Shown here in pieces: positions 2,538-64,000 of a stretch of DNA of 64,000 nucleotides. Made by a program: the position numbers and the translations under genes. The notes under the pieces were generated by a model, which made no database searches, was not told where the DNA came from, and was given only the letters and a program-made list of their open reading frames with translations. The DNA lies in contig JAGLGN010000006.1 in NCBI GenBank assembly GCA_023144005.1, forward strand, positions 148,440 to 212,439. Reading direction: 5' to 3'. Position 1 is the stretch's first letter. Each line of letters begins with the position of its first letter. The stretch is from a bacterium. GTDB lineage: Bacteria > AUK180.

Positions 2538-4328
2538 ATGTCGAAGGAAATGATGTCAGGAAACGAGGCCATTGCCCGAGCGGCTTACGAAGCCGGAGTT
2601 AAGGTTGCAGCAGCATATCCAGGCACGCCATCGAGCGAAATAATGGAAAATGTTGCTAAGTATGACGAGATCTTTTCCCAATGGGGGCCCAATGAAAAGG
2701 TCGCCTTCGAAGTCGCCTTAGGAGCTGCTTTTGCCGGAAAACGAGCCATCTGCGCAATGAAACATGTCGGGCTCAATGTTGCGGCAGACCCTTTCTTTAC
2801 CGCTTCATACTCAGGGGTCGAAGCCGGATTTGTGATCGTTTCGGCCGATGAGCCGGGGATGCATTCTTCACAGAACGAACAAGATAACAGGAATTACGCC
2901 AAATTTGCTAAGATCCCCATGCTCGAACCCTCCGACTCACAGGAGGCGAAGGACTTCACAAAACTTGCTTTCGATATTTCCGAAAAATTCGACACCCCCG
3001 TCCTGATGAGGGTCACGACCAGGATCTGCCATTCCAAGAGCATGGTGGAACTGAAAGAGCGGAAAGAGACGGGACTTAATGAATTCCCCAAGAAAAATAC
3101 AAGGAAGTATGTCGTAATCCCGGCACATGCCAGGATAAAGAGGGTCATGGTCGAGCAAAGGCTGAAAGACTTGGCGGAATATGCCGAAAACACCGACATC
3201 AACAGGATAGAAGAAGGAACCCGAGATCTTGCATTTATTACCTCCGGGTTCTCTCACAATTATGTTAAAGAAGTTTATCCGGACGCGCATTTTCTGAAAT
3301 TGGGCTTCACCTATCCGCTTCCTATGAAAATGATCCGGAAATTCGTGGATCAGCACAAGAAGGTGATCGTGGTGGAAGAATTGGACCCCTTCATGGAAGA
3401 TCAGATAAAAGTAGCGGGGATCAATGTTCATGGAATGGATATAATCACGAATATCGGGGAACTTAACTCTGATATTATACGCAACTCAATAGAGAATACG
3501 AAGGACGAGGTCAACGATATCGGGGTCAGCATACCCGTAAGGCCGCCCGCACTTTGCCCCGGCTGCCCTCATAGAGGCGTTTTCACGATCCTGAGAGAAC
3601 AGAGCGTACGCGTTATGGGAGACATAGGATGTTATACACTGGGAGTGCTGCCGCCGCTTGACAATCTTGATTGGTGCGTATGTATGGGAGCCGGCGTATC
3701 TATGGTGCAGGGACTTGAAAAAGCATGGGATGATGAACATGCCGATAAGATCGTAGGCATGGTCGGAGATTCCACATTCTTTCATTCCGGCATAACGGGC
3801 CTGGTAGATATTGTGTATAATCATGGTATCGGAACTATTTTCGTCCTGGACAATTCAACGACCGCTATGACAGGAACGCAGGAGAATCCCGCAACGGGAA
3901 AGGATATAAAAGGAAAGCCCGCCACGCGTGTAGATATCAGGAAGATATGCGAAGCAGTGGGGATCAAGGAGATCTACGATGTGGACCCACAGGACCTTGA
4001 TGCCTTGGGCGAAGTAGTGGCTAAGGCCTTGGCTTCAAAAAACCCTACGGTAATAATAACACACAGGGAATGTATTTTACTGCCGCTCCGAGCTAAAGTT
4101 AAATTTACGCCACTGAAGATAGATACGGAAAAGTGTATCGGCTGCAAGAGCTGTGTCTCGGTCGGATGCCCCGCGTTGGCTTATGATAAGAAGTTAAGAA
4201 AAACAAGGGTTCTCCCCGAACTCTGTGTCGGATGTGAAGTATGCTCAAGAATGTGCCCTAAAAGCGCCTTTACCAAGAACGGAGAACCTCTGGTCTATGA
4301 AAAACGGCATAAGATAAGGGGGAAATAA
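2538..4328 (+). CDS. iorA: Indolepyruvate:ferredoxin oxidoreductase alpha subunit
   Basis: 596 aa with a TPP-enzyme N-terminus (GNEAIARAAYEAGV...AYPGTPSSEI) and two C-terminal CxxCxxCxxxCP ferredoxin motifs. AGGAGAG RBS. Confidence 0.9.
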   Translation: MSKEMMSGNEAIARAAYEAGVKVAAAYPGTPSSEIMENVAKYDEIFSQWGPNEKVAFEVALGAAFAGKRAICAMKHVGLNVAADPFFTASYSGVEAGFVIVSADEPGMHSSQNEQDNRNYAKFAKIPMLEPSDSQEAKDFTKLAFDISEKFDTPVLMRVTTRICHSKSMVELKERKETGLNEFPKKNTRKYVVIPAHARIKRVMVEQRLKDLAEYAENTDINRIEEGTRDLAFITSGFSHNYVKEVYPDAHFLKLGFTYPLPMKMIRKFVDQHKKVIVVEELDPFMEDQIKVAGINVHGMDIITNIGELNSDIIRNSIENTKDEVNDIGVSIPVRPPALCPGCPHRGVFTILREQSVRVMGDIGCYTLGVLPPLDNLDWCVCMGAGVSMVQGLEKAWDDEHADKIVGMVGDSTFFHSGITGLVDIVYNHGIGTIFVLDNSTTAMTGTQENPATGKDIKGKPATRVDIRKICEAVGIKEIYDVDPQDLDALGEVVAKALASKNPTVIITHRECILLPLRAKVKFTPLKIDTEKCIGCKSCVSVGCPALAYDKKLRKTRVLPELCVGCEVCSRMCPKSAFTKNGEPLVYEKRHKIRGK

Positions 4329-13742: not shown

Positions 13743-13749
13743 ACAGGCT

Positions 13750-14022
13750 AGTGTACTGTTCCATAAATACCATAACAATGGCTGAAGCTATTTTGTTACG
13801 GATTCAAGGCGCGAGGAACATCGCATACCCACTGCGGTATGTAAGCGACGAGCAACGCAGAAGACAGGAAAAGAGCTTCAGCCCGAAGGGAATATCAGCT
13901 TTGGTCAATTTCTTTCTCTCTTTTCGTTTATGTACCACTAAGGGTACGCCGCACTCATCGTTCGTTGAGATTGACTCAAATCTAAGCATTCCATTGTTAT
14001 GGTATTTATGGAACCGTACACT
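13750..14022 (+). mobile_element. MITE-like non-coding element with 32-bp terminal inverted repeats, copy A
   Basis: TIRs AGTGTACTGTTCCATAAATACCATAACAATGG / CCATTGTTATGGTATTTATGGAACCGTACACT. The body is about 85% identical to copy B (43638-43910) and to the reverse-oriented copy C (62598-63042). No ORF is conserved beyond nucleotide identity. Confidence 0.6.
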
Positions 14023-14037
14023 TAGGGAGGTAAGTTT

Positions 14038-18291: not shown

Positions 18292-19791
18292 ATGACCGAC
18301 AAAGTTGTCCTTATGCTGAGTTTCGGTGGATATCTTACATTTATTCTCATTATCGGGATCATTGCATCCAAGTTCAATAAAACACTTTCTGATTTTTTAC
18401 TAGGCGGCAGAAAGCTCGGACCGTGGCTGCTCTCCATCTCCGAAAGGGCATCAGGAGAGAGCGCCTGGCTGATCGTCGGGTTTACGGGAACGGCTTTCGC
18501 CATGGGTCTGAAGGCGATCTGGATCGCGCTCGGATGCGCGCTCGGGATCATATTCAATTGGCTCTTCATCGCTAAAAAACTCAGAGAGGCGGGAGGGAAA
18601 TACGATTCCCTTACGATTCCCGATTATTTAGCGGAGCGCTACGGGGATAAGAGGCACATTCTACGCATCACATCTGCGGTAATGATCCTGATCTTCTATG
18701 TTCTTTATGTGTCAGGACAGTTCATGGGTACTCAGAAGATACTTGAGGTGGCATTTAACATACCGCCGACCACCGGAATACTTATAGGTGCGGCGATCAT
18801 TATCTTTTATACCGCGCTGGGCGGATTTATGGCGGTGGTATGGACTGATTTCTTTCAGGGACTTATTATGCTTGCAGCACTCGTTCTGCTCCCGATCCTC
18901 GGACTGATCAAACTGGGGGGATTCGGCGCCGCGATCGAGATGATCCGGGCGGCAAGAGGGCCCGAAGCGGCAGGGCTCTTTTATTCCGGCAATTTCTGGC
19001 AATCTGTAGCTCTTGTGATATCCGGCCTCGGATGGGGACTCGGATATATGGGACAGCCGCATCTTCTGGTGAGATTTATGGCATTTGATGATACAAAGAA
19101 CATAAAAAAGGGAGCCACGATTGCGATCATATGGACCGTGCTCGCATATACCGGTGCGGTGATAATAGGGATAATCGGACTGGCGGCGCTGAAAGGAAGT
19201 CTTGAGAACGGAACGCTTTTCGGGGCGGTGATCACGGACAAGGAACATGTGATGCCAATGCTTGCATTGAAACTTGTGCCGGCGTTCCTAGCGGGGATAT
19301 TCATTTCCGGCGCGATTGCCGCTATGATGTCTACCGCCGACTCCCAGTTGCTCGTATGTACCTCAACGGTCACCGAGGATTATCTGATCAAGGTGAAAAA
19401 GAAAGACCTCAGCAATAAGCAAATGGTCAGGATCAGCAGAATAGTGACCGTAGTGCTTGGCGTCATTGCTCTTGTGTTCGGTATGCTGGGAAGCAAGGTC
19501 TTTGACCAGGTACTGCACGCGTGGGCCGGGCTGGGCGCGACCATAGGCGTAACAATGCTTCTGTCCATTTACTGGAAAAGGTCAAATCTGAACGGAGCTC
19601 TCTGGGGTATGATCACCGGATTTTCCGTTGTCGTGATATGGAACGCGATAAAAATACTGACTCATCTTGAGGGTGTACCGAAATTCTTTGTTTACAGCTT
19701 TGACAATGAGATAGTGCCTGCGTTCATACTTGCGGTTGCCGTCCATATGATAGTTTCGATAGCAACAAAAAAAACAGAGGTTAGAGGGTAG
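18292..19791 (+). CDS. Sodium:solute symporter family (SSS, PutP-like) transporter
   Basis: 499 aa, multi-TM, N-terminal LGGRKLGPWLLSISERASGESAWLIVGFTG typical of SSF. Confidence 0.85.
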   Translation: MTDKVVLMLSFGGYLTFILIIGIIASKFNKTLSDFLLGGRKLGPWLLSISERASGESAWLIVGFTGTAFAMGLKAIWIALGCALGIIFNWLFIAKKLREAGGKYDSLTIPDYLAERYGDKRHILRITSAVMILIFYVLYVSGQFMGTQKILEVAFNIPPTTGILIGAAIIIFYTALGGFMAVVWTDFFQGLIMLAALVLLPILGLIKLGGFGAAIEMIRAARGPEAAGLFYSGNFWQSVALVISGLGWGLGYMGQPHLLVRFMAFDDTKNIKKGATIAIIWTVLAYTGAVIIGIIGLAALKGSLENGTLFGAVITDKEHVMPMLALKLVPAFLAGIFISGAIAAMMSTADSQLLVCTSTVTEDYLIKVKKKDLSNKQMVRISRIVTVVLGVIALVFGMLGSKVFDQVLHAWAGLGATIGVTMLLSIYWKRSNLNGALWGMITGFSVVVIWNAIKILTHLEGVPKFFVYSFDNEIVPAFILAVAVHMIVSIATKKTEVRG

Positions 19792-20016
19792 AGGCCTATA
19801 GAGAAATTAAAAATGGACAATTGACAGTTGACAATTGCAGAGAGAAATGAAGAATGACGCTTCGCAGTGAACCAGCAGACCCAGTGGAACACGATGCGCA
19901 ATGCACCAGGTAGGTGATAAGGTCGTACGTAGAGAGGGATGGATCCTTCGCGTGATAAGCTCAGGATGACAGAACAATATTAATAACATTCAAGGATGTG
20001 TGGAGAATGTTTCCAT

Positions 20017-20132
20017 GTGATTCTAAACATTGCGAAGAGTGTACAATTGCTTCACAATTTTCAACTCTTCGCTTGGAACCTTTACATCGGGACAGACGAA
20101 CGCCTGAAGCGTACGACATGTCCCATATCTTA
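20017..20132 (+). repeat. Second repeat family, copy 1 (hairpin-containing element of about 115 nt)
   Basis: About 85% identical to the reverse complement of 43549-43637 plus 43911-43938. The core CAATTTTCAACTCTTCGCTTGG...CATCGGGACAGACGAACGCC...GCGTACGACATGTCCCATATCTT contains GGGACA...TGTCCC inverted repeats. Confidence 0.45.
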
Positions 20133-20248
20133 CTTCGCTCCGGTATTCTATTGTTTGAACGGATGATTTTAATGAAAGGAGCGATATAGCGTTTTTCCGG
20201 TCTTACTCCCACTTCGTACTTTCCTTTTGAATGTTATTTCAAATTTTA

Positions 20249-20276
20249 TTGACTTAAAAGAAAAATAATGTAAAAT
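20249..20276 (+). promoter_or_regulatory. Putative promoter for tRNA-Ala (TTGACT-16-TAAAAT)
   Basis: -35 at 20249-20254 and -10 at 20271-20276, about 11 nt before the tRNA 5' end. Confidence 0.4.
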
Positions 20277-20287
20277 ATAACCCTAAT

Positions 20288-20360
20288 GGGGATGTAGCTC
20301 AGTTGGGAGAGCGATGCGTTCGCAACGCATAGGTCGTCGGTTCAAATCCGGTCATCTCCA
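20288..20360 (+). tRNA. tRNA-Ala (anticodon CGC)
   Basis: Cloverleaf GGGGATG/CATCTCC acceptor with G3:U70, D-arm GCTCAGTTGGGAGAGC, anticodon loop TTCGCAA, T-loop TTCAAAT. CCA is not encoded. Confidence 0.9.
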
Positions 20361-20922
20361 TTTTTTCCTTTATCATTTATCTCAAAACTAGTGATCTGAT
20401 TCATAAAACAATAAAAGCAGTCTGAAATGTGAAGTGTGAAGTGGTGAAAAGACGGGATGAAATAAAACTGGATCCCACGGTCGCCAACTCCCTCTGGATG
20501 ACACTTTCCACTTCTTTATTTCCTTCCCGCATCCGCTCAACGGGAGCCCGGCAGCGCCGGGCGACCAACCCAAAAGAGTTTTGAACCATTTAAGCGACAT
20601 TGACATTTTTAACGGCAAGAATGAATGGTGGCGAAGCCGAAAATATCCAATTGTCTGAGTGAGCGAAAGCTAACGAGTTTTGGGATTTTAATGAGTGATA
20701 GCCGTGGTGAGTATCGTTGCAAAAAATGACGTGAGAGCAAAAACGGATCAAAACTCAATTAAATAATCTTTATTCAATTGTCAATTTTACATTGACAATT
20801 CAAAGATGATATTCCCTTCGGGTAGATACTCTTTTTATGTCTTCTGCTTTCCTGCGGCTCTCATGCTGAACAAAATAGCATCAGCCATTGTCAATGGATT
20901 TATGAATTAGCTCACTAATAAA

Positions 20923-40601: not shown

Positions 40602-43384
40602 TATTTACCACCGATGCTTCTGATCACTCCGAGGTAATCTTCATGATATTCTTTATTTACGGGGCGGTCATTCAGCAGATCGGGATACCATTTCTGTATG
40701 AACCGCCCGATACGCGAGATCCTTGTATTATCCTTTTTTCCAGAATAGACCGCCCTTTGAAGTTCAAGCAATTCCACAGCAACCCGGCGGCCCGCATCGA
40801 CAAGATCATCGGACAATTGCTCTTTTCTTAATGCCTCTTTGATCGCTTCCATTTTTTCCTCAATCTTCCCGGAGGTTCCGGCAAGTTCGCCTTTTTCCTT
40901 GCTTTCTTTGATATCTTCGGACAATTTTGAGAGTCGTTCCTGCAGTTCCTGCTGCTTATCAGCAGCCTGCTTCACGGCATCGCTCATCCTCTTATTCATA
41001 CCGGAAGAACGGTATTGTTCCATCATTTTCTCCAGATAACTATTGAGTTTCTGCTGATCTTGTGAAAGGGAGTTGAGCTTTTCAAAAAGATTCATTGAGC
41101 TGCCCGAAGAACAAGAGGAGGCATCCATTCTATCCATGAGGACTATCAGTTTATTTAAAAAGATCGCATTGGAATTCTTGAATTGAGAAAAATATCTCTG
41201 CTCCTTTTTCAGGCGGTAATTTTGAAAACTATTGTATGTATTTTGAAAAGAACTGTGAAGCGAGTGGTCGAACATCATCAGGATCGCGGCAAAAGAAGCC
41301 ATCTCATCTTTCATTGCGGCAAGATTCGATTCCGCCCAGCTCTCCATCTCAGGCGTAAAGTGCGACATCACATCAAGAGCGACGGTCTTCTCGACAAGGG
41401 GCGAAAGGTCAGGAGAGCTATTGGAACGGTTGTTCAATTTATCCGCGGAATAATCTTTGAAATCCGATGATAATTTTTTCTTGCTTTGCTCAAAGGTCTT
41501 TTGCTGCATCTTTTGATTCATCTTTGATAATTCATTTCTTGCTTTATCGGGGTCAAGAAGCTTTTCGTCCTCTTTATCAAAACGCGAGAACAGATCAGAT
41601 ACATCGCTCTTGATCTCGTCCAATTTATCGGTTTGCTTCTGTTCTAATTGATCCAATTTCTTTGAAATACGGGCAGCGTCTAACCCTTTTTTATATTCTT
41701 CGAGCTGTTTGATGATCCTCTCTAATTCCCAGGATATCTTCTCAAGATCGGCCTGTGATACCTTTTGTGACGATGGGCGGGAATCCAATCCCTGCTCCAT
41801 TTTCTGCCGCAGCAGATCCAGCACTTCTTTATTCAAAAGTTCTTTCATGAGCTCCTGCTGCCTTTTTACCTGCTCGATGATCTTCTTTTCAACCTTCAGT
41901 TCTTCCAGTGCTGCCTCCAAGTATTCCATGGTCTTCTCTATCGTTTCGCCACGCTTCTGGATCTCTTGTGTAAGTTCGTTGCTCTTTGAAGTTTTCGGAT
42001 CGAATTTCTTGTCACCGCCATCCAGCGGCTCCGCCTTCATCATCTCAAGTTCCCCGAAAAGCGTACTGCCGACCTCCTCCCAAATATCCTGCAAAGCATT
42101 ATTATCCATAAGAGAAAGAGTGAGCTTTCTTGAGCGGCCTTCCTTTCCATAGCCGTCAAAAGACCTTATATAGATATAGACGTAGCTGTCTGATATATCC
42201 GTTATTCTTTCCAACGGGATCATGTATTTCCCGGAGAGAGACAGCGAACCCTTATTCACTCTCAACTCCCTTATGCCGGCTATTCCTCCGCTTTCCTTCT
42301 CCCAGGCAAATTCAACCCTGTATATCCCATCGGGATCTGTAATTTCGTACCGCAATTCATAATCTCCATAAAAACCGTCCAGTTCAACATCTTCAAGCGG
42401 TTTCGTTATCTTTACCGATGGACCTGAATTGGGCGCGATGGGGATCCTTTTATAGAACTTCCCTGCAAGATAGCCGCTCTTATAAAAGTAAGCGAGAAAC
42501 TCACAGTCATTGAAGGGAATGATGGAAGAGGCAAGCAGATCAGAGCGGTTGCCATCCACGGTCAGAACAAAGGTATCATAATCCCCCTGCGGCTCGATCT
42601 TGTAATGCAGCGTTTCACCCTCAAGCGGTATTCTGTCCCCGGGTTCCAAATTCCTGCCTTGTCTTTTGATATGGAAGTGCGAGCGGAAACTAAGGGGAAG
42701 TATGAATTCCACAGGGATCTCCTTGCTTCCGCCTTTCCAGGTAACGATCAGAGGAGAGCGCTCTATCGCTGGAAGCTCGATCTCTGAATTATTAACACTT
42801 TGCTTAAATAATGGGTCCCTCCCGTCAGAGATAGAGATTTCAATGGCATCGCCATAGGTATGGATATTCATTCTTACTGGATCGGCTGTGAAGCGGTTAT
42901 ACACCAGTCTGTCGGGTGATATCCGCACAAAGGAAGCGGTGGAAAGACCGGTATTCATCCCTGTCAGCAGCCAAGAGAACGCGATGATGAAAAATATCTG
43001 AATATATACCGCTCTGAACAACCAGAAAGGCGGGATGACCGGAGAAGTCCTCTGCATGAGCAGGTCATAGAGTTTCAATATCTCAAAATCGACGGCACCG
43101 GCGTCAGCACCGCTTTTCAATATCAGCGCGTGATATAATCTGTTCCCTTCATCACCGCAATCCTTTTTGATCATTCTCAATACTCCCCGATCCGAAATAT
43201 ACAGAAGAATAATTAATATCAACGGTATCAGAATAAGAAATACGGGCAATCGCGCCCAGATCACGATCGCAAGAAGAATAGGAAGAAGGCAGAGGGATAT
43301 CAGAAGGCCGCGTACAAATTGATACATTCTGAAATGATTGAGAAGCTCCTTTGCTTTTCTCCCGATGCCAGTGTGCTGTTTCAT
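40601..43384 (-). CDS. Membrane-anchored protein with N-terminal TM helices, a beta-rich middle domain and a long C-terminal coiled coil (unknown function)
   Basis: 927 aa. Its stop overlaps the trmFO start by 1 nt. The final 500 aa show heptad-like charged repeats. Confidence 0.6.
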   Translation of the reverse strand: MKQHTGIGRKAKELLNHFRMYQFVRGLLISLCLLPILLAIVIWARLPVFLILIPLILIILLYISDRGVLRMIKKDCGDEGNRLYHALILKSGADAGAVDFEILKLYDLLMQRTSPVIPPFWLFRAVYIQIFFIIAFSWLLTGMNTGLSTASFVRISPDRLVYNRFTADPVRMNIHTYGDAIEISISDGRDPLFKQSVNNSEIELPAIERSPLIVTWKGGSKEIPVEFILPLSFRSHFHIKRQGRNLEPGDRIPLEGETLHYKIEPQGDYDTFVLTVDGNRSDLLASSIIPFNDCEFLAYFYKSGYLAGKFYKRIPIAPNSGPSVKITKPLEDVELDGFYGDYELRYEITDPDGIYRVEFAWEKESGGIAGIRELRVNKGSLSLSGKYMIPLERITDISDSYVYIYIRSFDGYGKEGRSRKLTLSLMDNNALQDIWEEVGSTLFGELEMMKAEPLDGGDKKFDPKTSKSNELTQEIQKRGETIEKTMEYLEAALEELKVEKKIIEQVKRQQELMKELLNKEVLDLLRQKMEQGLDSRPSSQKVSQADLEKISWELERIIKQLEEYKKGLDAARISKKLDQLEQKQTDKLDEIKSDVSDLFSRFDKEDEKLLDPDKARNELSKMNQKMQQKTFEQSKKKLSSDFKDYSADKLNNRSNSSPDLSPLVEKTVALDVMSHFTPEMESWAESNLAAMKDEMASFAAILMMFDHSLHSSFQNTYNSFQNYRLKKEQRYFSQFKNSNAIFLNKLIVLMDRMDASSCSSGSSMNLFEKLNSLSQDQQKLNSYLEKMMEQYRSSGMNKRMSDAVKQAADKQQELQERLSKLSEDIKESKEKGELAGTSGKIEEKMEAIKEALRKEQLSDDLVDAGRRVAVELLELQRAVYSGKKDNTRISRIGRFIQKWYPDLLNDRPVNKEYHEDYLGVIRSIGGK

Positions 43385-43417
43385 AAATACGATGACAGTC
43401 GTTCACGTGGCGAACGA

Positions 43418-43447
43418 TGTGTGAAGTGTGATGTGTGATGTGTAAAG
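43418..43447 (+). repeat. Tandem heptamer repeat TGTGA(A/T)G x4 (C-free)
   Basis: TGTGTGAAG TGTGATG TGTGATG TGTAAAG immediately upstream of the 927-aa gene. A related TGTGAAG x2-3 array lies at 20428-20451. Confidence 0.5.
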
Positions 43448-43548
43448 CGAGGAGAACAAGGCAATATCCACATCCGTAATCGGAAAATCAATATTTCGTT
43501 TAACACTGTAATTTTCCTGTTCCAATCATATCACGCCGGATCCCAATC

Positions 43549-43938
43549 AAGATATGGGACATGTCGTACGCCATCGGCGTTCGTCTGTCCCGATGTAAAA
43601 ATACCAAGCGGAGAGTTGAAAATTGCGAAGCAATACGAGTGTTCTGATTCATAAAGACGGTAACAATGGCTGATGCTATATTGATCCGTATTCTAGGCGC
43701 GAGGAATGGTGCATACCCAGCACGGTATGTAAGCGACGAGCAACGCAGAAGACGGAAAAAGAGCTTCAGCCCGAAGGGAATATCATCTTTGATCAATTTC
43801 TTCCTCTCTCTTCGCTTATGTACCACTAAGGGTACGCAACGCTCATTGTTCGTTGGAATTGACTCAAACCTAAACATTCCATTGTCACTGTATGTATGAA
43901 TCAGAGCACTAAACTCTTCGCAATATATAAAATCACAC
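43549..43938 (-). repeat. Second repeat family, copy 2 (reverse orientation), carrying a nested MITE copy
   Basis: The flanks 43549-43637 and 43911-43938 match 20017-20132 in reverse complement. The 273-bp element sits between them at the position corresponding to 20038-20044. Confidence 0.45.
43638..43910 (+). mobile_element. MITE-like element copy B (273 bp, diverged TIRs)
   Basis: TIRs AGTGTTCTGATTCATAAAGACGGTAACAATGG / CCATTGTCACTGTATGTATGAATCAGAGCACT. The body is about 85% identical to copy A. Confidence 0.6.
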
Positions 43939-43948
43939 GATAACATAC

Positions 43949-44506
43949 TTAACGCTCCTCAGAAAATACAAATGCTTCAAAGGTCAGAAGTTCCGTTGAA
44001 GGGTCTTTCCAGGCCTCGGCCGGAAGGCCGGCTTTACCGAAGCACAGATGAGAAAGAAAGGTCGGAAGATCCCAACCCGTTTCTGTGGCCACCTGAGGGA
44101 GAAATACTCCCTGGCTGAAACCTTTTTTCACCAGCACTCCATGCTGGCCCAATATGATATCTTTGTATGAATTTACTTTTTTCATTGGTGACAATACCGA
44201 TAATTCCACGGTCAGGTCAGTAAGCTCCTCAGGGCGGACATCAGGAAAACGGGGATCGCCCAATGCTGACTCAACGGATGTTTCCAATACGGATTTCCAC
44301 AATGGATCGCGGGCGATGATAAAGCCGATGCAACCTCTTAATTCCCCCGCTTTCTTCAAAGTGGTAAAAACGCCGTATGGCTTACCGTACTTATTTTTCA
44401 ATTCCAAAGACATCTTCATATACTCATTGTTCTTGAGATAAAAAACAATGCTGGAACGGGCAAGGGATAACAATTCTTTCTGGTCGGCGGAGGAGAAATT
44501 TATCAT
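43949..44506 (-). CDS. AMMECR1-domain protein (AmmeMemoRadiSam system protein A-like)
   Basis: 185 aa with the LRGCIGF motif. Confidence 0.8.
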   Translation of the reverse strand: MINFSSADQKELLSLARSSIVFYLKNNEYMKMSLELKNKYGKPYGVFTTLKKAGELRGCIGFIIARDPLWKSVLETSVESALGDPRFPDVRPEELTDLTVELSVLSPMKKVNSYKDIILGQHGVLVKKGFSQGVFLPQVATETGWDLPTFLSHLCFGKAGLPAEAWKDPSTELLTFEAFVFSEER

Positions 44507-58922: not shown

Positions 58923-59048
58923 CTGCTTCTCATTTCATCCACAATTAGAATATACCGCTTTTTTGCCGAATTTGCAAAATATGATGACCGTACAACCCTA
59001 GTGTACTGTAAATGCTTGAAATAATCGCAGTAATCATTATAATAAAGG

Positions 59049-59887: not shown

Positions 59888-62029
59888 ATGAACAAGGAGC
59901 TTGGGAAGCCATCCGAGGTATTTAACGAAGATAAGGTAAAAAAGATCCTTATCGACACCATTCAGAATATGAGGGGAATAGTCCTTACAAAAAGCGATAA
60001 TGAACAGATCGCAATGGCGGTGCAGTTCCTTTTAAAATTCCTCGGCCCCAAACACCGTATGGACTATCATCCCGCAGCGCTTCACTCGATCAGAGTGGCT
60101 ATTAAATGCGTTACTTACTACAAGATATACGACAAAGAGATGATAATGGCGGCGCTTTTGCATGATGTCGTGGAGGATTCCAAGGTCTCTATTGACGAGG
60201 TCAGAAAGAAGTTCGGCTACAATGTCGCTTATCTGGTGGACGGCCTTACAAAATATAAATTCGCCGAAGAAGATGTCTCAAAGATGGTAAAAGAAGCGAC
60301 TTCCCTGATCAAGCTGATCCTTTTTGCGCAGAAAGATATCAGGATCATCCTAATTAAATTCATGGACCGGATAGACAATATCGAGACCATCAGAGCGACG
60401 CCGAATATACAGAAAATCGTAAAAACAAAAGAAACCTTCGACATATACATCCCCATCGCGGACGCCTTGAATATGTGGAAAGTGAAGATGTACCTGGAGA
60501 ACCTCGCTTTCAAGATCCAATACGGTGAATTCGCCCATCTGGTTTACGAGGAATTCTACAATTTCAAGAGCGAGAAATTCAAAGGGACCAATTCGGAAGC
60601 GTATATCAAGGGAAATATCATTAAGAAGATCGCGAGGGAATTAAAAAAGAGAAAGATAAAGATCATGAATCTCAAGTACCGCGAGAAGAGCCTTTACGGC
60701 ATACATAAAAAAATGCAGAAGGTCGCCACCTCCATCGATCTGATCTATGATCTTTTCGGGATCAAGGTCATTGTCGACAGAGAGATCGAATGTTATCAGG
60801 CGCTGGAAGCTATACAGAAGATATTTCCGACATTCATCCGAGTGAAGGATTACATTAAGAATCCGAAGAATAACGGATATAAATCAATTCATCTGGACAT
60901 TCAGGATCCTAAATTGAAGATATGGATAGAATTGCAGATCAAAACAGATGAAATGGAGGCTTATAATGAATACGGGCCTGCGGCACACCCCCTTTACAAG
61001 GGGTGGGAATTTCATTCCTATCAATTCCAGGACATCGGAAAGGTGTATGAGATGCTTGAGAATGTTCTGAAATCCAGAAGATTGAATCCCGAGGTCCTTG
61101 ATATCAATATCCTCACTCCCGCCGGTGACAAGATTACCCTTCCTTACGGCTCAACCGTTCTTGACCTCGCATACCGTATTCACTCCGACATCGGATATCA
61201 TTGCAAACAGGCCAAGATCAACAGGGTCAATATTCTCGGCGAATTGATCGTTTCCCCTGAAGAAATACTGCATGACGGTGACCGGATCGAGATCATAGTG
61301 GATCCGGAAACACATCCCGCGATCGACTGGCTCTTACATGTAAGAACACATGATGCCTTTAAATCAATTAAGAACTGGCTGTATCATTATTATAACTCCG
61401 AAGAAATCGGGAATGCGTTGTCGCGGTCCATTGCCGATCTCGAGAAAAAAGGGAGAAATTCTCCAATATACTCCGTTGTTAAAGGCATTTACAAAGATAT
61501 TTATCCCGCTGACCTGAAGAAGATCAAAAAGGATCCCGTAAAAACAAAGCTCCCTTTAACGGCCATGTATAAGGTTGTAGTGCCAAAGACCGGTGAAGAG
61601 ATCGTTGATTTCAAATTGGCGCTTTGCTGCAGCCCGCTTCAGGGAGAGCCGATAGTCGGGATCAGATCCAAGGACGGAATGGTAATACACAAAGAGAACT
61701 GCCTTACCGCTGGTGCAAAAGCGATACCGATCAGATGGGCCACCGACCATAATGCAAAGAAATGGAAGACAAAGATCTATTTCTCTTTAGAGCAGAAAAC
61801 AGACCGCAGGAAGGCACAGAAGAAATTAGAAAAGATCTTAAAGATGGCGCTAAGCGGATATGAGGGGTATTATGAAAATCTCGAGATCCAATTTTCATCC
61901 GTGGACGAACAAAAGACCTCTTCGGGGTATATTTTCATTGATGTGAATACTTCCAGGGTCACAAGAAAAATAAAGGAGGCTTTCCTGGATGATAAAAGCA
62001 TCTCCGGAGTTCTTCCGAACTGCTGGTAA
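59888..62029 (+). CDS. Bifunctional (p)ppGpp synthetase/hydrolase (RelA/SpoT homologue)
   Basis: Start at MNKELGK, with AGGGA 8 nt upstream. Contains an HD hydrolase domain (LLHDVVED), a synthetase domain (YKSIHLDI), then TGS and ACT-like C-terminal domains. Confidence 0.9.
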   Translation: MNKELGKPSEVFNEDKVKKILIDTIQNMRGIVLTKSDNEQIAMAVQFLLKFLGPKHRMDYHPAALHSIRVAIKCVTYYKIYDKEMIMAALLHDVVEDSKVSIDEVRKKFGYNVAYLVDGLTKYKFAEEDVSKMVKEATSLIKLILFAQKDIRIILIKFMDRIDNIETIRATPNIQKIVKTKETFDIYIPIADALNMWKVKMYLENLAFKIQYGEFAHLVYEEFYNFKSEKFKGTNSEAYIKGNIIKKIARELKKRKIKIMNLKYREKSLYGIHKKMQKVATSIDLIYDLFGIKVIVDREIECYQALEAIQKIFPTFIRVKDYIKNPKNNGYKSIHLDIQDPKLKIWIELQIKTDEMEAYNEYGPAAHPLYKGWEFHSYQFQDIGKVYEMLENVLKSRRLNPEVLDINILTPAGDKITLPYGSTVLDLAYRIHSDIGYHCKQAKINRVNILGELIVSPEEILHDGDRIEIIVDPETHPAIDWLLHVRTHDAFKSIKNWLYHYYNSEEIGNALSRSIADLEKKGRNSPIYSVVKGIYKDIYPADLKKIKKDPVKTKLPLTAMYKVVVPKTGEEIVDFKLALCCSPLQGEPIVGIRSKDGMVIHKENCLTAGAKAIPIRWATDHNAKKWKTKIYFSLEQKTDRRKAQKKLEKILKMALSGYEGYYENLEIQFSSVDEQKTSSGYIFIDVNTSRVTRKIKEAFLDDKSISGVLPNCW

Positions 62030-63204
62030 CGGCTCGCTGATTTTCCTTGATACTCCTTTCGTATCTGCCTTTACAACAAGGTTAAATGGTGTTTCTTCGG
62101 GCAATTTCTCATCTTTCAATCTATACTTCGGTAGAGGGGATAAACTGGAAGATGTTGAGCGTAACTGGGAGATTTTGCGCGAATATCTTGATTTTAACGG
62201 CAAGATCGTCTTGCCGCAGCAAATACACTCATCTACGATAAAATATGTTCCTGAAAATCTCGAACAAGGCGGTATCAACCATATTCCTCAATGTGATGGA
62301 TTGATAACGGACAAAAAAGGGGTCCTCACAGGAGTAATGTTCGCCGATTGCCTTCCGGTGCTTATCTGGGGTACGAGATATGCCGCTATTCTGCATGCCG
62401 GATGGCGGGGACTCGCGTCCGGGATCATTGGAAATGGGGTACGCGAACTTATCTCCAAGGGAGAAAACCCATCAGAACTCAATGCGGCCTTGGGACCGTG
62501 TATAGCCGCGGAAGATTATGAAGTAGGTCAAGAAGTTGTCCGTGCCTTCACCGACGCCGGGCTTGAAAATGCCGTTGAACGGTCAGGCAGCAGCTATAGT
62601 GTACTATTCCATATATACCATATCAATGGAATGTTTAGATTTGAGTCAATTCCAACGAACAATAAGCGCAGCGTACCCTTTGTGGTCCGTAAGCGAAGAG
62701 AGAGGAAGAAATTGACCAAAGATGATATTCCCTTCGAGCTGAAGCTCTTTTTCTGTCTTCTGCGTTGCAAGTGCTCTGATTTAAAATCCGCTGACAATGG
62801 AATGTTTAGATTTGAGGCAATTCCAACGAATAATGAGCACGGCGTACCCTTGGTGGTCCGTGAGCGAAGAATGAGGAAGAAATTGACCAAAGATAAGATT
62901 CCCTCTGGGCTGAATCTCTTTTGCCGTCTTCTACGTTCCTCGTCCCTTACATACCGCCTGCGGGTATGCAGCGCTCCTCGCTCCTTGAATACGACACAAA
63001 ATAGTTTCAGCCATTGTTGTGGTATTTATGGAACAGCACACTCGAGCATCTCTTGTCAAAGGTGCTGTCTTTCAATTGATCGAATTCAAAGTTGCCAATA
63101 TCTATTTTGAAAGGTATAATACATACGGACAGAGTGAGAAATTTTTCTCTTACCGAAGGGACGGAGCGAAGGTAGGAGAGATGCTGATGTTTTTTATCCT
63201 ATAG
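61989..63204 (+). pseudogene. pgeF: pgeF/yfiH (DUF152 purine nucleoside phosphorylase / peptidoglycan editing factor) interrupted by a 445-bp element
   Basis: The 5' part (61989-62597) aligns to YfiH up to ...AFTDAGLENAVERSGSSY (ADCLPV, HAGWRGL). The 3' part (63043-63204) encodes RASLVKGAVFQLIEFKVANIYFERYNTYGQSEKFFSYRRDGAKVGEMLMFFIL, matching the YfiH C-terminus (ETFFSYRRD). Removing 62598-63042 joins the two in frame. Confidence 0.7.
62598..63042 (-). mobile_element. MITE-like element copy C (composite, 445 bp, reverse orientation) inserted in pgeF
   Basis: Outer TIRs AGTGTACTATTCCATATATACCATATCAATGG / CCATTGTTGTGGTATTTATGGAACAGCACACT. An internal partial body is followed by a second B-type start-TIR (AGTGCTCTGATTTAAAATCCGCTGACAATGG) near 62775, then a complete body. 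Confidence 0.65.
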
Positions 63205-63563: not shown

Positions 63564-63595
63564 TGGTATCTATCTATATTCCATAGATCAGAACA

Positions 63596-64000
63596 CTATC
63601 TTCCGGAATATATCTTATTCTTCAATCTTTCGAGTTTTAATTTGAAATCAGAATCCGTTATTCTGAGTTTATCGATCTTTCTTACGGCGTTCAATACGGT
63701 AGTGTGGTCCTTTCCACCGAATTCATTCGCGATAGACGGATAGGAAAGCTTCAAGAGTTTTTTCATGAAATACATGGCGACCTGCCGTGGAATAAGAACA
63801 TTCTTTGTGCGTCTTGTGGAGGTTATTTCCGAAAGCCGGATATCAAAGAATGCGGAGGTTTGCGTCATTATCGAATCAATATTAAGTACACTTTGAGGGA
63901 TAAGCGAACACAATAGGGATTTGATCTGATCGTCAGAAAATTGTTTGCCCTCGATCTTCTGTTTCATGCTTATCCTTTTCAATGCGGTGATAAGGTCCCT
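63596..64000 (-). CDS. dnaA: Chromosomal replication initiator DnaA, C-terminal part (domain IV). The N-terminus lies beyond the window end.
   Basis: The frame is open to the window edge. LIPRQVAMYFMKKLLKLSYPSIANEFGGKDHTTVLNAVRKIDKL matches DnaA DNA-binding domain IV (PRQVAMYL...GGRDHTTV). Confidence 0.8.
   Translation of the reverse strand, partial: RDLITALKRISMKQKIEGKQFSDDQIKSLLCSLIPQSVLNIDSIMTQTSAFFDIRLSEITSTRRTKNVLIPRQVAMYFMKKLLKLSYPSIANEFGGKDHTTVLNAVRKIDKLRITDSDFKLKLERLKNKIYSGR

Follow-up and report, generated by a model that had tools for sequence, protein, structure and literature searches.

Bacterial MITEs are exemplified by the Correia/NEMIS elements of Neisseria, the RPEs of Rickettsia, and Nezha of cyanobacteria. 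MITEs derived from IS630/Tc1-mariner transposons insert at TA, often within CTAG, and the end of Tc1 itself is CAGTG. Members of the IS30 family target their own inverted repeats, with (IS30)2 junctions and a fixed spacer; Tn916-like and other recombinase-driven elements integrate without a target duplication and with variable "coupling" nucleotides; and IS200/IS605-derived elements lack terminal inverted repeats and have a conserved 4-5 nt target directly 5' of the left end.

The element considered here resembles bacterial MITEs in its length (273 nt), lack of coding capacity, long terminal inverted repeats, and many copies per genome; its copies lie mainly between genes and sometimes within them, form mosaic and nested arrangements, and break assemblies. 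It differs in that no target-site duplication is detectable and no parent insertion sequence is found, and in its host, a member of the Atribacterota. It is an ordinary nested MITE, a new family of a known kind, not found described for this phylum in the literature searched (a full-text search returns no report of a MITE for Atribacteria or Atribacterota). The arrangement in the window (the whole 64,000-nt stretch of DNA that was analysed) is probably a nest of non-autonomous transposons in an Atribacteria genome, in which the MITE entered a second repeat, rep2, on one occasion, the composite was copied, the heptamer AGTGTAC belongs natively to rep2, and solo termini are remnants. The features of the window are given in Table 1; L-numbers designate related loci.

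Table 1. Positions of the repeat elements and their parts in the window.
Feature	Position	Strand	Description
MITE copy A	13750-14022	+	termini AGTGTAC.../...GTACACT; present or absent among closely related strains
Uninterrupted rep2 copy	19940-20200	+	homology reaches past 20017-20132, the span of the preliminary description
527-nt element	20390-20916		same inverted repeats at its ends; right part is a short MITE derivative (D)
Remainder of mosaic element with rep2	43370-43548	-	homologous to L033 1278-1603 and L024 1-250
3' arm, interrupted rep2 module	43549-43637	-	includes junction nucleotides 43635-43637
MITE copy B	43638-43910	+	273 nt; left end AGTGTTCTGATTCATAAAGACGGTAACAATGG, right end ...CCATTGTCACTGTATGTATGAATCAGAGCACT; terminal inverted repeats of ~32 nt
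5' arm, interrupted rep2 module	43911-43949	-	...TTGCGAAGAGTTT up to the junction, on the minus strand; reaches the AMMECR1 stop codon
30-nt block with solo terminus CTAGTGTACTGT	58981-59010	+	orthologous position in L009 has an unrelated 141-nt repeat fragment; flanks shared
Composite MITE, 445 nt	62598-63042	-	full C1 (62770-63042) abuts the 3' 171 nt of C2 (62598-62768)
Second solo terminus (AGTGTTCTGATC...)	63570-63597	-	28-nt remnant at the exact place of the 642-nt element of L009

The preliminary description placed copy B inside a member of a second repeat family, and rep2 does resume on both sides of the element: positions 43549-43634 are 90% complementary to 20046-20131, and positions 43910-43949 are 80% complementary to 20004-20043. 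The case for nesting is strengthened by the occurrence of the same rep2::MITE junction at at least seven loci in three genomes. In reverse complement the interrupted copy reads TGCGAAGAGTTT-[273 nt]-CGTATTGCTTCGC, with the longer 5' context ...TTGCGAAGAGTTT; the layout is as first described, except that three T's precede the element where two were given, a trivial difference. The junction nucleotides at 43635-43637 are ACG on the plus strand and CGT on the minus strand; uninterrupted rep2 copies have ACA there. Copy B is 84% identical to copy A (13750-14022), and its termini are AGTGTTC and AGTGCTC, that is, other than AGTGTAC. As single-stranded DNA, copy B is predicted to form a long terminal stem through its terminal repeats (z = -4.6). 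A promoter and terminator scan of 43300-44000 gives nothing above shuffled controls, and Rfam gives no match with E < 0.2 in 43380-43960 or 19790-20290. Public assemblies carry a 148-aa gene call over rep2 and copy B (43500-43946, minus strand), which has no Pfam match and is almost certainly spurious. The gene next to the composite is annotated with two starts (43174/43384; 857 or 927 aa), and the longer version of its open reading frame begins within the inverted repeat at 43370-43401.

Copies of the MITE are numerous. A 25-base core pattern matches five times in the window versus 0 expected, and is present at 46 loci of two Atribacteria MAGs and in no other among 185,579 species representatives. 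The catalogue of these loci and the window (356 kb) contains ~140 inverted-repeat ends and 33 full 273-nt copies. Copies A, B, and C and the 33 full copies in related loci are bounded on either side by terminal repeats of ~32 nt (consensus AGTGTNCTGNTNCATAAATACNNTNACAATGG), and the interior is well conserved in the family consensus. A protein-coding reading of this interior is rejected: variability has no codon periodicity (0.077/0.091/0.065 for the three phases), stops occur in five of the six consensus frames, and the open reading frames of 96 aa (copy A) and 148 aa (copy B) are read-through artefacts. A structured-RNA reading is rejected as well, since the one Rfam match at gathering score in the window is tRNA-Ala and permissive E-values add none. 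The terminal repeats and conserved non-coding interior, together with the existence of further families that share the repeat, identify the element as a MITE of a mosaic non-autonomous superfamily; these further families have the same 20-30 nt terminal repeat and other interiors (window 43370 and 20390; L028 1640-1961; L030 898-1201). Of the features by which a MITE is recognized, terminal inverted repeats, small non-coding size, and dispersed copies with filled and empty sites are present, and a target-site duplication is not. Three short elements of 331-379 nt in JGI metagenomes (L081 201-531, L086 1085-1463, L093 2733), which belong to an unrelated GC-rich organism, have the outermost 21-24 nt of the inverted repeat in common with the MITE (AGTGTCCTGTTTCATAAATAC). 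The repeat is thus not confined to these Atribacteria, and the same presumably holds for its transposase family. The flanks of the L081 copy are CT/AGTG...CACT/AG (here and below, a slash marks the element boundary).

The superfamily was recently active in uncultivated Atribacterota, because copy A is missing from a strain that is 98% identical (L065, empty allele ACAGGGAGGTAAATTTATG) and copy C lies in a gene that is intact in L009. This gene, assigned by Pfam to Cu-oxidase_4 (PgeF/YfiH-like; window 61989-63110), contains the 445-nt composite ~55 codons ahead of its end; the orthologue (L009 3690-4460, MAG RS_12_30) is empty and encodes 256 aa. The composite insertion is found in all population contigs of the window's organism. 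At the copy A site (window 13743-14037), the 98% identical strain has the compact spacer ACAGGGAGGTAAATTT (L065 1600-1625), and a third allele, ACAGG-TGATGAATAAA-TTT, is present at L058 1545-1565 with flanks identical to the window. The L058 allele is not regarded as an excision scar of copy A: TAAATTTATG is present both in this allele and in the empty one, and L058 has the appearance of a third variant of the spacer. Several assemblies end exactly at GAACAGG near copy A.

The uninterrupted rep2 copy at 20 kb reads TGCGAAGAGT-GTAC-AATTGCTTC (longer stretch ...TTGCGAAGAGTGTACAATTGCTTCAC...), and AGTGTAC is present, as claimed, at the position homologous to the insertion point (20038-20044). Homology with other rep2 copies spans at least 19940-20200, subsets of which vary from copy to copy. 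The heptamer is also the terminus of copy A and of C2, and the preliminary description suggested on this basis that the element either prefers targets resembling its own end or left a footprint on excision. Neither suggestion is borne out by the other members of the family. The site has the same length in nine uninterrupted copies from four related genomes, with AGTGTAC in five, AGTTTAC in three, and AGCGTAC in one. The alignment of eight of these copies is gap-free at the site, GAG(T/C)(G/T)TACAATTGC (GAGTGTAC in four, GAGTTTAC in three, GAGCGTAC in one); the ninth, from another strain (L096), is orthologous to the 20-kb copy, likewise uninterrupted, and carries AGTGTAC in a spacer that is 88% identical. 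Because AGT is common to filled and empty rep2 copies, the extra match to the MITE terminus amounts to GTAC only (4 nt). In the window AGTGTAC occurs seven times versus 1.35 expected, a weak excess in which three occurrences are MITE termini and four lie elsewhere. An alignment of filled and empty sites, which the preliminary description proposed for deriving an insertion rule, gives no recurrent motif of this kind: scored within ~20 nt of the insertion point, the best match to AGTGTAC is five of seven positions at five other empty sites, three of them orthologous (copy A/L065, copy C/L009, L050/L017, the uninterrupted MITE position 100, and the L042/L047 site, the last compared with window 20.7 kb and L009). 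This is the outcome by which, on the preliminary description's own terms, the heptamer is a coincidence. AGTGTAC in the uninterrupted copy is native and polymorphic sequence of the rep2 family, which resembles the terminus of another MITE subfamily by coincidence. More generally, when an empty site resembles the end of a transposon over 7 nt, the resemblance can be purely a matter of family sequence.

In the predicted fold of rep2, a 9-bp stem (GCGAAGAGT/ACTCTTCGC) has AGT as its final 3 nt, and GTAC (KTAC in the family) is a 4-nt internal loop located 5' of a 5-bp hairpin. The z-score of the fold is -4.3, with values of about -4 on both strands, and the stem shows weak covariation (compensatory changes in 2 of 13 pairs among eight copies); it could represent either a structured RNA or a protein-binding DNA hairpin. 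In 20004-20098 and eight other copies, a second predicted hairpin (GGGACAG...TGTCCC), which has no Rfam match, follows the first.

The idea that the 20-kb rep2 formerly held the MITE, with GTAC or AGTGTAC left behind on its excision, is already close to refutation and is considered barely credible. Remnants that retain 10-12 nt of a terminus do exist, namely the 28 nt at 63570-63597, where L009 has a 642-nt element, and the 23 nt at L020 6060-6082, which include both termini. However, independent footprints would be expected to differ from each other, whereas the nine uninterrupted copies, at various loci and in various genomes, show no variation in length at the site, only single-base differences. 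Moreover, excision from the filled state as it is known ought to leave GAGTTT followed by AGTG..., which is seen in no copy; the bases at the site belong to the stem and internal loop of the predicted fold, in which two compensatory stem changes occur among eight copies; and the orthologous 20-kb copy has the same sequence in another strain.

The filled copies, by comparison, share one junction in one orientation, GAGTTT/AGTG...CACT/CGTATTGC, in the window, L012, L035, L036, and L046, and the 5' side of the same junction is also found in L010, L038, and L049. GAGTTT beside the element is the T variant of rep2, not the G variant, and all filled copies have CGT at the site of ACA in the uninterrupted ones. 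An identical junction in all interrupted copies (at least seven loci) fits a single old insertion with later copying of the composite, and one old insertion into one rep2 subfamily is the simplest reading of the alignments. The interrupted copies could instead be independent insertions at a hot spot. Copy B is nearest to the MITEs of L035 and L010 (91-95%) and is no closer to those of L036 and L012 than to unrelated copies; the exact pre-insertion subfamily (CGTATTGC) is found without a MITE at none of the loci. With a single insertion, the 273-bp MITE would have entered a T-variant rep2 copy (GAGTTTAC...) at the internal loop, right after the 9-bp stem, and the rep2::MITE composite would then have been copied to several loci. 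A composite of ~580 nt has itself inserted between AMMECR1 and the next gene. The movements were presumably driven in trans, by a transposase binding to the 32-bp repeat that the elements have in common.

The insertion next to AMMECR1 is indicated by L095, in which AMMECR1 is 89% identical and only ~40 nt separate it from the next gene; the block at 43370-43948 (~580 nt) is absent as a whole, so the entire composite is itself an insertion. In a strain that is 97% identical (L094) the copy B site is also filled, and with this strain filled and the 89% relative free of the whole composite, an orthologous empty site for copy B is not recovered. The outer end of the mosaic element is at 43370, where its terminal inverted repeat begins (43370-43401, AGTGTGCTGTTTCATAAATACGATGACAGTCG); in the window, L033, L018, and L024, rep2 runs on for ~150 nt into a canonical repeat of this kind. 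In L009 a rep2 module lies inside an inverted-repeat-bounded element of 642 nt (2683-3324), to which window 20390-20916 is homologous, although its central segment is different. The presence of rep2 within several elements bounded by inverted repeats makes it a cargo module of larger mosaic elements. The 527-nt element at 20390 starts 29 nt after tRNA-Ala (20287-20361). The related strain contig L096 departs from the window ~20 nt past tRNA-Ala, and the site at 20390-20916 may be polymorphic too.

Solo termini are a further part of this repeat landscape. The 12-nt solo terminus noted at 58998-59009 (CTAGTGTACTGT) is real and also occurs at 13748; its rarity holds as well, with 0.03 matches expected by chance when up to one mismatch is allowed. 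The search for additional solo termini, proposed at the same time, yields five exact 11-mers versus 1.5 expected. The one at 63570-63597 has flanks in common with L009 on both sides and is a decay remnant of an older element. The terminus at 58998 is probably the decay remnant of a degraded element in a repeat-rich spacer; L020 6060-6082, a 23-nt mini-palindrome built of both termini, is probably a decay remnant too.

The flanks of the MITE show a bias but not a duplication. The base at -1 is T at 61% of ends, G is found at -2 in 2 of 124, the right flank begins with AG in half of the copies, and CT/AGTG and CACT/AG are the commonest junctions; T and A flank the element on its two sides in 10 of 28 independent copies. 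In a set of 22 independent copies, the two flanks share direct repeats of 2-4 nt, in registers of 0-4 nt, no more often than chance predicts, which rejects any 2-4 nt target-site duplication in shifted registers. Comparison with empty sites gives a net gain of 6 nt for copy A (CAG/GGAGG becoming CAG-GCT[273]TAG-GGAGG), a net change of 0, in frame, for copy C versus the empty gene of L009, and a net change of -1 nt for L050 versus L017. A target-site duplication is thus undetectable, and the junction nucleotides are somewhat variable. At the insertion point, TA is lacking in the empty site of copy A (CAGGGAGG) and in that of L050 (CCCGAATTC); TA is present in those of C and rep2, so a TA rule fails at two of four informative sites.

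These properties resemble several known systems in part. Like the IS630/Tc1-mariner elements, the MITE has an (N)AGTG terminus similar to CAGTG, T at -1 in the majority of ends, and CT/AGTG and CACT/AG junctions, the L081 copy included; unlike them, it lacks TA at the empty sites of copy A and L050, has T...A on both sides in only a minority of copies and spacers of 1-5 nt, and is accompanied by no DDE transposase that could be seen. An IS630-like TA/CTAG duplication is rejected: the flanks show the appropriate bias, yet TA is missing at two of the orthologous empty sites. The likeness to Tn916-like elements lies in the missing target-site duplication and in variable junction nucleotides that come from neither target nor repeat (6 extra nt at copy A, three on each side in one register, and, at copy B, ACG where uninterrupted rep2 has TGT). 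In contrast, near-perfect inverted repeats of 32 bp and small size are atypical of such elements, no recombinase is found, and net changes of +6, 0, and -1 in three orthologous pairs give no evidence of a fixed coupling length. Derivation from a palindrome-associated IS200/IS605 element is rejected on two grounds: the element has long terminal inverted repeats, and no fixed tetranucleotide is common to the left flanks.

A likeness to IS30 is apparent in the way the ends of different elements abut far above chance. A perfect terminus motif (AGTGNNCTG) is found within 20 nt of the flank at 5 of 100 independent ends versus 0.09 expected, and all five are end-to-end abutments in which the motif faces the element at a spacing of 0-3 nt; matches at six of seven positions are not enriched in the flanks (one observed versus 1.8 expected). 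Further abutments occur at L022 2998 and L034 144, a solo 10-nt terminus lies 3 nt away from the element at L037 5707, and AGTGTAC is found 3 nt past the right end in L015. The MITE has also inserted twice, independently, into another copy of itself, at points a few nt apart near position 100 (junctions GAC-TAT/../TG-CAACGC and AAGC-AATG/../AG-CAACGC). Five abutments versus 0.09 expected show that members of the family do stack against resident copies, and hence that the family has end-directed targeting of some form. Unlike IS30, the family has a variable spacer, no 2-3 bp duplication, and no IS30-type transposase that was found, and rep2 does not stand in the abutted orientation.

These cases would also be explained, together with the rep2 insertion, if the transposase favoured sequences like or beside its own terminal repeat and the rep2 site had been chosen because AGT(G/T)TAC mimics a terminus. 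This extension to rep2 is quite unlikely: the rep2 motif lies upstream of the junction and points in the same direction as the inserted end, whereas every enriched case is face-to-face; five empty sites (those for copy A, copy C, and L050, MITE position 100, and the L042 site) do not have the motif; T replaces G (AGTTTAC) in 3 of 9 uninterrupted rep2 copies and in the flank of the filled copies; and the spacers from CAC to GTG at abutted ends are 1, 1, 2, 3, 4, and 5 nt, where an IS30-type mechanism has a fixed spacer. With this orientation, the rep2 insertion is not an instance of end-to-end stacking.

DNA structure offers another route to both the rep2 loop and the site within the MITE, if insertion is favoured at the junctions or loops of DNA that forms hairpins or cruciforms. 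The insertion point in rep2 is, by prediction, the 4-nt internal loop between the 9-bp and 5-bp stems, the MITE-in-MITE site falls between small predicted hairpins, and MITE ends occur at further rep2 boundaries (positions ~22, 128, and 147). Such a preference is nevertheless very unlikely, because no obvious hairpin is present at three orthologous empty sites, that of copy A in a ribosome-binding-site spacer, that of copy C in coding sequence, and that of L050, and selection by itself would leave surviving insertions concentrated in non-essential repeats; the folds, moreover, are predictions with weak covariation (2 of 13 pairs). A broader proposal is that this Atribacteria inverted-repeat family integrates without target-site duplication, with a few non-templated or carried-over junction nucleotides and a preference for the ends of resident copies, by an unusual, perhaps recombinase-type or IS30-like, end-directed mechanism and not by standard DDE staggered cut-and-paste, with hairpin modules such as rep2 serving as preferred landing pads; taken as a whole it is unlikely. 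If a complete genome bears them out, the missing target-site duplication and the stacking of ends would be mechanistically interesting.

Searches for the source of mobility cover the related loci and the window. No pair of inverted repeats 700-3000 nt apart encloses an open reading frame, no multi-copy open reading frame is found in the 356 kb, and no transposase Pfam match occurs among the called genes of the 64 kb and its flanks. A plasmid BLAST, a viral contig scan, and two scans of JGI metagenomes give only chance matches and three short MITE-like relatives, and the open reading frames beside two of the metagenome matches are unrelated genes. As neither an autonomous copy nor a transposase is found, mobilisation in trans is something that we infer.

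The MITE family accounts for assembly breaks, for the spurious 148-aa call across copy B, and for the ambiguous start of the gene next to the composite. Copy C has broken a PgeF/YfiH-like gene, and copy A varies among closely related strains; the practical value of these observations is modest.

Some other loci show additional rearrangements. L042 3898-4170 and L047 600-872 are homologous sites that have the same flanks and the same variants of the outer inverted repeats, with the MITE interior inverted in one relative to the other, which suggests flipping via recombination between the 32-bp inverted repeats. At L049 1550-1822 there is a full 273-nt MITE; in the other genome, at the orthologous L051 4810-4954, that element's 28-nt inverted repeat runs into 117 nt of unrelated low-complexity sequence, and a second repeat is lacking. 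Short low-complexity motifs (among them GACAATTGACAGTTGACAATTG, GTGAAGTGTGAAGTGG, and CACAAGTGACAAGTG) occur among the intergenic repeats of the window (19800-19850, 20425-20445, and 43420-43445) and of many loci, and they recur beside the inverted repeats of several element families.
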